The notes under the pieces were generated by a model that saw only the letters and a list, made by a program, of their open reading frames with translations, was not told where the DNA came from and searched no databases. This document shows, in pieces, positions 5,399 through 6,307 of a stretch of DNA of 64,000 nucleotides. Within the stretch, counting starts at the first letter, position 1. The number at the start of each line of letters is the position of its first letter. The translations under genes were made by a program, and so were the position numbers. The stretch covers positions 8,750 through 72,749 of the forward strand of contig JAFRCC010000022.1 of assembly GCA_017404545.1 (NCBI GenBank), written 5' to 3'. Source of the DNA: Clostridia bacterium (lineage in GTDB: Bacteria > Bacillota > Clostridia > TANB77 > CAG-508).

Positions 5399-5821
5399 TT
5401 ATGAGCATATTTTGTGATTTCTATCTAACCAACATAGAAAAAATATACTATTACTTCTAAAACCAAATATTCTAGCTTTATCGGTAATTCTCATTTCACA
5501 ATATGTAATATCCTCGCTAAGAAGATTCTTGCTAACAGGAAGTTTATTTGCATTTGATACATCTTCATATCTAAGACTTGAATTACGTTTTACTTGGCTC
5601 CATGTTAGTTTATTTATTAAATCAATTTTATTTGAAAGCTCTTTAAGCTCTTCTCTTTGCCATTCACTCAAGTCTTCATATGACTTGTCATAATACTTTA
5701 GTGCAATATATGCATTCTTTTCATCAGAATTTTCTCCATCTGTCGCAAGACCAAGTACATCTTTTTTCTTAGTTAGTGTGTTCGTTGGTATGCTCTTTGG
5801 TATCCTTCCTTTATTTGACAA
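5399..5821 (-). CDS. Hypothetical protein, candidate toxin partner of the adjacent Panacea-domain antitoxin
   Basis: 140-aa ORF that starts immediately after the stop of the Panacea gene at 5822 (no intergenic gap). No recognisable motif. Confidence 0.4.
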   Translation of the reverse strand: MSNKGRIPKSIPTNTLTKKKDVLGLATDGENSDEKNAYIALKYYDKSYEDLSEWQREELKELSNKIDLINKLTWSQVKRNSSLRYEDVSNANKLPVSKNLLSEDITYCEMRITDKARIFGFRSNSIFFLCWLDRNHKICS

Positions 5822-6307
5822 TTATACACCTTCTCTTTGTTTTGAATAAAATTCTTTCATACTTTCTTTAGTGATAACATTTGTACATTTCTCTTCTTTA
5901 GGTATGTTTCCTCTTGCAATTCGCCATGGATCTTCACTATGAGTTAAGTTTTCTAAATATTTTGCTTCAAAAATTCCATAATTATCCATGACCTGCTCTA
6001 AGATTTCTTCGTGTTCACTATCAATATCAACACATTCATCGTGATTAGGTGCTTTTATTTCTTCAAAAGAAGAACCAGAATATTTATTATATACCTCTGG
6101 AACTACTGGACCATGCATCCAAGCTTGAATCTCTTCTTCAAACAATGGCTCTCCCGTAATAACCAAAGTCCATGCTTGTGCGTAGTATAGTAACTTTTGA
6201 AGTTTTAAATGTGTCATAGAATCACCAGATTCTCTATCAACAGCAGTTAAAAACCAATTTGCAATATCTGTTGCTTTATACATTATTACCACCTCCTCAT
6301 ATAGCAT
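5822..6307 (-). CDS. Panacea (DUF4065; SocA/GepA-like) domain antitoxin
   Basis: HLKLQKLLYYAQAWTLVITGEPLFEEEIQAWMHGPVVPEVY is the hallmark of DUF4065/Panacea. Confidence 0.7.
   Translation of the reverse strand: MLYEEVVIMYKATDIANWFLTAVDRESGDSMTHLKLQKLLYYAQAWTLVITGEPLFEEEIQAWMHGPVVPEVYNKYSGSSFEEIKAPNHDECVDIDSEHEEILEQVMDNYGIFEAKYLENLTHSEDPWRIARGNIPKEEKCTNVITKESMKEFYSKQREGV

Follow-up and report, generated by a model that had tools for sequence, protein, structure and literature searches.

A Panacea-domain gene paired with a PanT cluster T1 member of predicted RelE fold in a defence island of a Clostridia bacterium

A stretch of 64,000 nucleotides (nt) from a Clostridia bacterium (assembly GCA_017404545.1, contig JAFRCC010000022.1, positions 8,750 to 72,749), referred to here as the window, carries on its minus strand a two-gene cassette in which a Panacea gene (5822..6307) is followed, with a gap of 0 nt and in the same frame, by a gene for a 140-amino acid (aa) protein (5399..5821). 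As judged from its sequence, the 140-aa protein is a member of PanT cluster T1, a group that is already catalogued, and not the founder of a new toxin family. We consider it probable that the locus is a toxin-antitoxin-type module of the PanA-PanT (T1) class, in which the product of the second gene, panT, would be a RelE-fold endoribonuclease that blocks translation, while the product of the first, PanA, would neutralise it.

Both open reading frames (ORFs) had been described in an earlier, sequence-only reading of this region; they are present as described and lie on the minus strand, which that reading had not specified. The longest ORF of panA (5822..6307) encodes 161 aa, although its true start, as read from the sequence, is probably the ATG at 6283 (M9), giving a gene of 5822..6283 and a product of 153 aa. 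This start is preferred because it is preceded by the Shine-Dalgarno sequence GGAGGTGG (read directly in the sequence), because the -10 box of a promoter-like site ends at 6306, which would place the alternative ATG at 6307 within that box, and because gene callers give 153 aa in near-identical copies of the gene (loci L001-L004). The promoter-like site itself (TTGATT, 17-nt spacer, TATAAT; 6306..6334, minus strand) lies inside the conserved cassette and scored 10/12 in a consensus scan, being a consensus match only. The TTG start of panT is found directly after the TAA stop of panA, in agreement with the zero spacing noted previously, and AGAAGGTG lies 5 nt 5' of the TTG, both of which fit translational coupling of the two genes. 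No alternative in-frame start is available in panT before residue 110. The motif ARIFGFRSNSIFFLCWLDRNH, which had been quoted for the 140-aa protein, is likewise present.

The DUF4065 motif that had been recognised in the 161-aa protein was found to be part of a full-length SocA_Panacea domain (Pfam PF13274; E 6.7e-24), scoring 85.4 bits where the gathering threshold is 25.7 and covering profile positions 1-112 of 113. The protein additionally matches PHROG 1281 (E 2e-51). With the NCBIfam SocA equivalog model (NF047745) it scored 75.6 bits, below the cut-off of 190, and PADLOC, which has no model for a PanA-T1 system, returned no match to it. With its gap of 0 nt, the gene pair falls within the definition applied by Kurata et al. 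2022, under which the Panacea gene and a toxin-like neighbour form a conserved locus of two genes no more than 100 nt apart.

The family membership of the 140-aa protein is indicated by several matches. It scored 58.3 bits against the NCBIfam model NF046006, 'MAG6450 family' (cut-off 40; E 8.9e-16; profile positions 7-102 of 103), the name of which derives from a conserved hypothetical protein of Mycoplasma agalactiae without known function, and it matches PHROG 8366 (E 8e-21). Furthermore, residues 49-138 align to positions 191-280 of the 284 in PDLC03891, the PADLOC model for NsnC of the Menshen system (E 2e-13); NsnC is the proposed effector of Menshen, and its C-terminal domains fall mostly into families assigned to the BECR-fold ribonucleases (RNases) (Li et al. 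2025, PMC12065111). By BLASTP, the protein is 45% identical over 118 residues (E 3e-35) to WP_133014904.1 of Clostridium cuniculi, which is listed in Dataset S1 of Kurata et al. 2022 (PMC8832971) as a predicted PanT (pT1/T1) encoded in antitoxin-first order (A|T) with the PanA WP_133014905.1. Among the PanT clusters of that work T1 is listed first, and the label pT1 occurs at least 217 times in its table of 1,268 pairs. A connection was also obtained to another T1 member, gp16 of Salmonella phage vB_SemP_Emek (YP_006560566.1): tblastn with the 140-aa protein reaches the Emek gene directly, the family profile aligns to gp16 with an hhalign probability of 98.9%, and the Emek T1 gene comes directly after a DUF4065 gene. 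The view that the protein is unclassifiable is thus not upheld by these matches.

The family is a large one. A word-seeded search returned 13 close relatives and a profile search 150, while HMMER, run exhaustively over 1.84 billion representatives, yielded 1,363 clusters (50% identity) at E ≤0.001, including 324 at ≤1e-10; all of the best 150 of these relatives are between 79 and 177 aa in length. Searches of Pfam-A with the 140-aa protein gave sub-threshold noise only (DUF733 and DUF1948), and a profile search of PDB sequences returned nothing relevant.

Structure prediction, which had been proposed as a check on the 140-aa protein, was carried out and argues for a PanT-type partner with a RelE-like fold and against a new domain. 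The AlphaFold2 model, built with 68 family sequences, has a mean predicted local distance difference test score of 88 and a predicted template modelling score of 0.77, with low confidence for residues 1 to ~30. It comprises a strand (38-40), two helices (56-71 and 74-79), a short helix (96-100) and three further strands (107-111, 116-123 and 126-134), and the predicted arrangement corresponds to the RelE/ParE core fold, that is, helices packed on a four-stranded antiparallel sheet. Foldseek comparison of the model with the PDB returned RelE/HigB/YafQ/YoeB-like matches with probabilities up to 1.00. At the level of sequence, the RelE/ParE, HigB, YoeB and YafQ family models of Pfam and NCBIfam gave no match to the protein at E ≤1, and hhalign of the family profile with Escherichia coli RelE, YoeB and YafQ and P. 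vulgaris HigB gave probabilities below 1%. Since a sequence-level link to these families was not detected, the RelE assignment applies at the level of fold or superfamily only. An alignment to YoeB placed R111, R117 and H136 in register with R59, R65 and H83; it was not significant and was not used as evidence.

Several residues are near-invariant in the family. In an alignment of 299 members (window numbering), E109 is conserved in 91%, R111 in 92%, R117 in 98%, G120 in 96%, D133 in 98% and H136 in 97%, and the combination of E109, R117 and H136 occurs in 266 of the 299, the window protein retaining all three. In the model, E109, R111, R117, D133 and H136 are located on strands beta2 and beta3 and at the end of beta4. 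In lying on beta2, on beta3 and towards the C-terminus, they resemble the active residues of YoeB and RelE, a general comparison and not a structural superposition.

The association of the two genes is strict. All 23 informative loci have a PanA homologue as the next upstream gene in the same orientation, and they span Firmicutes, Bacteroidota, Desulfobacterota, Proteobacteria and one P22-like phage. The set includes four near-identical cassette contexts, prophages of Clostridium and Enterococcus faecium, phage Emek, and genomes of Dyadobacter, Desulfobacterales, Nitrobacter, Erythrobacter and Parabeggiatoa; 12 related loci were retrieved with a 14-sequence family alignment. The pair is found between the resolvase and portal genes in the Clostridium prophages and past the lysis genes in those of E. 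faecium. The PanA proteins of linked pairs resemble one another (E 1e-35 to 1e-57) more than the toxins do. The sequence-only reading had presumed the 140-aa protein to be the PanT-like toxin of the Panacea gene, and the conserved partnership supports this part of the proposal, whereas the novelty ascribed to the partner falls away.

At the DNA level, the segment 5279..6381 of the window recurs at 97-98% identity (blastn) in four otherwise different neighbourhoods, with homology ending at 5279-5285 on the side of a downstream structured RNA (discussed below) and at ~6368-6383 on the promoter side. Because of this near-identity in four different settings, the 1.1-kb unit is seen to move as a cassette, and the same recurrence, together with the homologous pairs at all informative loci, shows that the pairing does not arise by chance. 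A T1 module of 79% identity (locus L025, 121-1423) was observed beside a CBASS-like SMODS and AGS-C pair; further neighbours in that locus, where 5340-7265 and 7701-7923 are also listed, are DUF4238 and HNH_2 genes and a group II intron (RF02005), giving it the look of a defence island.

On this basis, a course of events can be proposed for the PanA-PanT module. A single promoter would drive a translationally coupled panA-panT bicistron, and the panT product would consist of a disordered, basic N-terminal tail of ~35 residues and a core of the RelE/HigB/YoeB-type BECR fold. The toxin would most likely act as a metal-independent endoribonuclease and so arrest translation, and by analogy with RelE, YoeB and HigB it would probably cut mRNA on the ribosome. 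The same analogy points to E109 and R111 (strand beta2), R117 and R122 (beta3), and D133, R134 and H136 (end of beta4 and C-terminal tail) as the predicted active residues. PanA most likely keeps the toxin inactive by direct binding, in analogy with other stand-alone Panacea antitoxins, which neutralise their toxins directly (PMC10440598), and it may release or activate the toxin in response to a cue, plausibly phage infection.

Published experiments on T1 proteins bear on this proposal in both directions. The T1 protein of Clostridium cadaveris (WP_074844970.1) is toxic in E. coli, and Table S1 of Kurata et al. (PMC8832971) predicts it to act as an 'mRNase'. Several points nevertheless weigh against a classical toxin-antitoxin pair, foremost among them that T1 pairs have so far never been validated as a complete toxin-antitoxin system in E. 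coli: the C. cadaveris PanA, the only T1-associated one tested, did not neutralise the cognate T1 toxin in this host, and neither the T1 protein of E. coli MOD1 (WP_077635758.1) nor that of phage vB_SemP_Emek was toxic (PMC8832971). In addition, the C-terminal aromatic residue, Tyr or Phe in many members, is replaced by Cys in the clade to which the window protein belongs. In Emek gp16, as in an E. coli prophage protein of identical pattern, A, A and F are present in place of E109, R117 and H136, and the non-toxicity of the Emek protein may be explained by this loss of the conserved Glu, Arg and His.

The E. coli prophage T1 homologue found here differs in accession from MOD1 WP_077635758.1. 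In P22-like enterobacterial phages, the Panacea-T1 pair lies between a DNA-transfer gene and arc/ant (Emek, locus L012, 1975-2848; E. coli STEC346 prophage, locus L150, 1507-2374), the position at which P22 carries sieA. The enterobacterial pair was found in 48 of 5,426 complete E. coli genomes, and the P22-like T1 proteins are labelled just 'hypothetical protein' by the annotation pipeline PGAP.

The strongest alternative is that the pair serves primarily as an anti-phage (abortive infection) module or as a prophage superinfection-exclusion module, with PanA being a sensor that activates the RelE-fold effector without necessarily dissociating from it. We regard this as a real though lesser possibility. 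It overlaps with the PanA-PanT toxin-antitoxin reading and departs from it in the biological role and in the action of PanA. The neighbours of the cassette, which are a type II-A CRISPR-Cas locus, a second Panacea system and a helix-turn-helix/M78 protein matching PD-Lambda-2_B, would suit such a module, as would the accessory-gene positions that homologous pairs occupy in E. faecium and Clostridium prophages and in P22-like phages, the placement of one pair beside CBASS-like SMODS/AGS-C genes, and the effector domain held in common with Menshen NsnC. A sensor role for Panacea is favoured by Ernits et al. 2023, and the inability of the C. cadaveris PanA to neutralise in E. coli fits a partner other than a simple inhibitor. 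Set against these points, a location in a defence island is correlative only, and PADLOC neither holds a model for the system nor matches PanA.

It appears unlikely that the pair is no toxin-antitoxin system at all, the 140-aa protein being instead a BECR-fold protein without catalytic activity that binds RNA or has a regulatory function, and that serves, together with PanA, a different purpose related to phages. Only one of the three T1 proteins tested was toxic, an effect that its PanA did not relieve, inactive BECR domains such as MuF-C are known (PMC5512222), and the structured skipping-rope RNA directly downstream of panT could be a ligand. However, polar and charged residues of the RelE/YoeB kind are near-invariant in the family, the triad of E109, R117 and H136 being kept in the great majority of members; at least one of the non-toxic T1 proteins is a rare variant devoid of those residues, and the C. 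cadaveris homologue was toxic. Less probable still is a ParE-like toxin that poisons DNA gyrase instead of acting as an RNase, a reading that arises because the RelE/ParE fold alone does not separate the two activities. Finally, the new, unclassified toxin domain suggested by the sequence-only reading would accord with the absence of a Pfam-A model and the empty searches of PDB sequences, but it is scarcely tenable for a protein that exceeds the NF046006 cut-off, matches PHROG 8366, belongs to a cluster published in 2022, has a RelE-type predicted fold and counts relatives in 1,363 clusters.

The PanA-PanT module is part of a defence island, flanked on one side by a type II-A CRISPR array and on the other by a cassette for a helix-turn-helix/M78-peptidase protein. 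On the promoter side, the CRISPR array (6473..7300; ~13 repeats of 36 nt, GTTTCATTACTATCTAAAATAACATATTTCTAAAAC) ends ~90 nt from the cassette boundary, and beyond it lie csn2 (7360..8043), cas2 (8040..8360), cas1 (8350..9222) and cas9 (9207..13127), all on the minus strand; the type II-A CRISPR-Cas locus as a whole (6473..13127, minus strand) is complete. On the other side, within 3697..4992 (minus strand), lies the gene for a 339-aa protein with helix-turn-helix and M78 (ImmA/IrrE) peptidase domains, which has a HigA-like N-terminus and matches PADLOC PD-Lambda-2_B (E 4e-24). Two short overlapping ORFs in different frames (4728..4889 and 4804..4992) are located 5' of this gene, and they may represent a disrupted small toxin gene, since the homologous region of L001 carries an intact 89-aa gene. 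A 124-aa ORF with a HipA N-terminal domain (2654..3028, minus strand; PF13657, E 6e-6) has no full HipA kinase adjacent to it. The second Panacea system of the window (473..2447, minus strand) consists of an MqsR-like toxin gene (2034..2447; PF15723, E 1e-4, below the gathering score), a gene (970..2031) whose 353-aa product combines MqsA, helix-turn-helix and Panacea domains, and, 3' of this gene, a 155-aa ORF without a family match (473..940), all on the minus strand, beyond which a weaker copy of the skipping-rope RNA is found.

The skipping-rope RNA and its placement beside BECR-RNase genes in phages constitute the more unusual lead of the region. At the PanAT locus, the RNA (RF02924; 57.5 bits against a gathering score of 36.7, E 4e-12) occupies 5282..5381 on the minus strand, 17 nt past the panT stop. 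In this lineage only, it makes up the 3' terminus of the mobile cassette, whose homology stops exactly where the RNA ends on its 3' side. Directly 3' of the RNA lies a terminator-like hairpin (5237..5274, minus strand; inverted repeat I1) with 17-nt arms, a 4-nt loop and a short U run, and a second, stronger terminator-like hairpin is present at 5122-5152. The weaker copy (338..439, minus strand; 35.1 bits, E 2e-5) falls just below the gathering score and comes after the MqsR-like/Panacea operon and the 155-aa ORF. Elsewhere, the RNA follows the same PanAT cassette in L001 (1254-1354), L002 (4699-4799) and L003 (972-1072 and 3217-3316 being the two positions in this locus), and in L004 (2892-2989) it comes directly after the MqsA-Panacea gene. 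In this lineage it was also seen 3' of a cassette with an M78 peptidase and a 101-aa ORF, and the RNA together with ~95 nt of downstream sequence, including a terminator-like hairpin, recurs at ~90% identity. The RNA was rejected as a general companion of T1, since it is absent after the 79%- and 58%-identical modules and after all distant ones.

A pattern search of phage contigs in IMG/VR identified at least 120 instances of the skipping-rope RNA (loci L030-L149). In 112 of the 120 the RNA lies at most 400 nt downstream of an ORF on the same strand, usually ~30-40 nt past the gene, the commonest distance to the start of the search pattern being 37 nt. Half of the non-redundant upstream phage ORFs (30/60) end in PBECR2 or PBECR3, which are phage BECR-fold RNase domains usually fused to MuF head proteins; in one example (L127), the gene occupies 5404-7002 and the RNA 5287-5364, both on the minus strand. 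No ORF of at least 60 aa was seen directly 3' of the phage RNAs. The idea of a general Panacea companion was also discarded, a Panacea ORF being nearby in 3 of the 120 phage instances according to a home-made profile that may miss distant members, and a T1 homologue was near none of the 120. Comparison by hhalign of T1 with a PBECR alignment from the phage loci showed no similarity, and neither the T1 nor the PBECR profile gave a significant match to the 155-aa ORF or the MqsR-like protein of the window or to the 101-aa ORF of L003. In their treatment of the skipping-rope motif, Weinberg et al. 2017 describe a 'compelling association' with a nearby protein and Rho-independent terminators that come after the motif, and report there that self-cleavage was not found.

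The recurrent placement of the skipping-rope RNA past genes of BECR-superfamily RNases is suggestive. It adjoins the RelE-fold PanT, the MqsR-like/Panacea operon and the PBECR2/PBECR3 genes of phages, and for this reason we raise, as a speculation with rather low odds of being correct, that the PanA-T1 cassette of this lineage is a three-part unit in which the RNA is a dedicated partner of BECR-fold RNases, whether it inhibits or activates them, serves as a decoy substrate or is packaged with them as a ligand. If true, this would provide an orphan structured RNA with a function and would add an RNA layer to protein toxin-antitoxin systems and to the polymorphic-toxin systems of phages.

The window pair is one more copy of the catalogued T1 class, the largest and commonest group of Panacea-linked toxins, and opens no new toxin family. 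Its value lies in the class itself, of which at least 217 pairs are predicted and which, still biochemically uncharacterised, is not known to have a validated pair, a solved structure or a demonstrated activity. E109, R117 and H136 emerge as candidates for mutagenesis, and the loss of these residues in the Emek variant provides a testable explanation for some of the negative findings reported so far.

Among known systems, SocA-SocB of Caulobacter (type VI) has the same Panacea/DUF4065 antitoxin domain, although the window toxin is unrelated to SocB and nothing at the window locus suggests a ClpXP adaptor mechanism. With NsnC of Menshen the window protein shares the C-terminal 90 positions only; it is a stand-alone domain paired with PanA, and the locus has neither the N-terminal inactive-PIN domain nor NsnA (ParB-DUF262) or NsnB (ABC ATPase) neighbours and hence differs from the NsnABC architecture. 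Compared with the mRNA interferases RelE, HigB, YoeB and YafQ, the window toxin has no detectable sequence or profile similarity, carries an N-terminal extension of ~35-45 residues and an extra short helix, and is partnered by a Panacea protein and not by RelB, HigA, YefM or DinJ. The closest counterparts are the PanA-PanT T1 pairs of C. cuniculi (WP_133014905.1/WP_133014904.1) and C. cadaveris (WP_074844973.1/WP_074844970.1), which have the same Panacea-first order, a toxin-like gene of ~140-155 aa that likewise abuts or overlaps the Panacea gene, and the common motif ...ARxxGFR...FFLxWLDRNH...; T1 pairs are, moreover, often found in prophages. Within this class, the window copy is distinguished by its length of 140 aa, its TTG start, a C-terminal Cys in place of Tyr or Phe and, unlike more distant T1 modules, a skipping-rope RNA at its 3' end.

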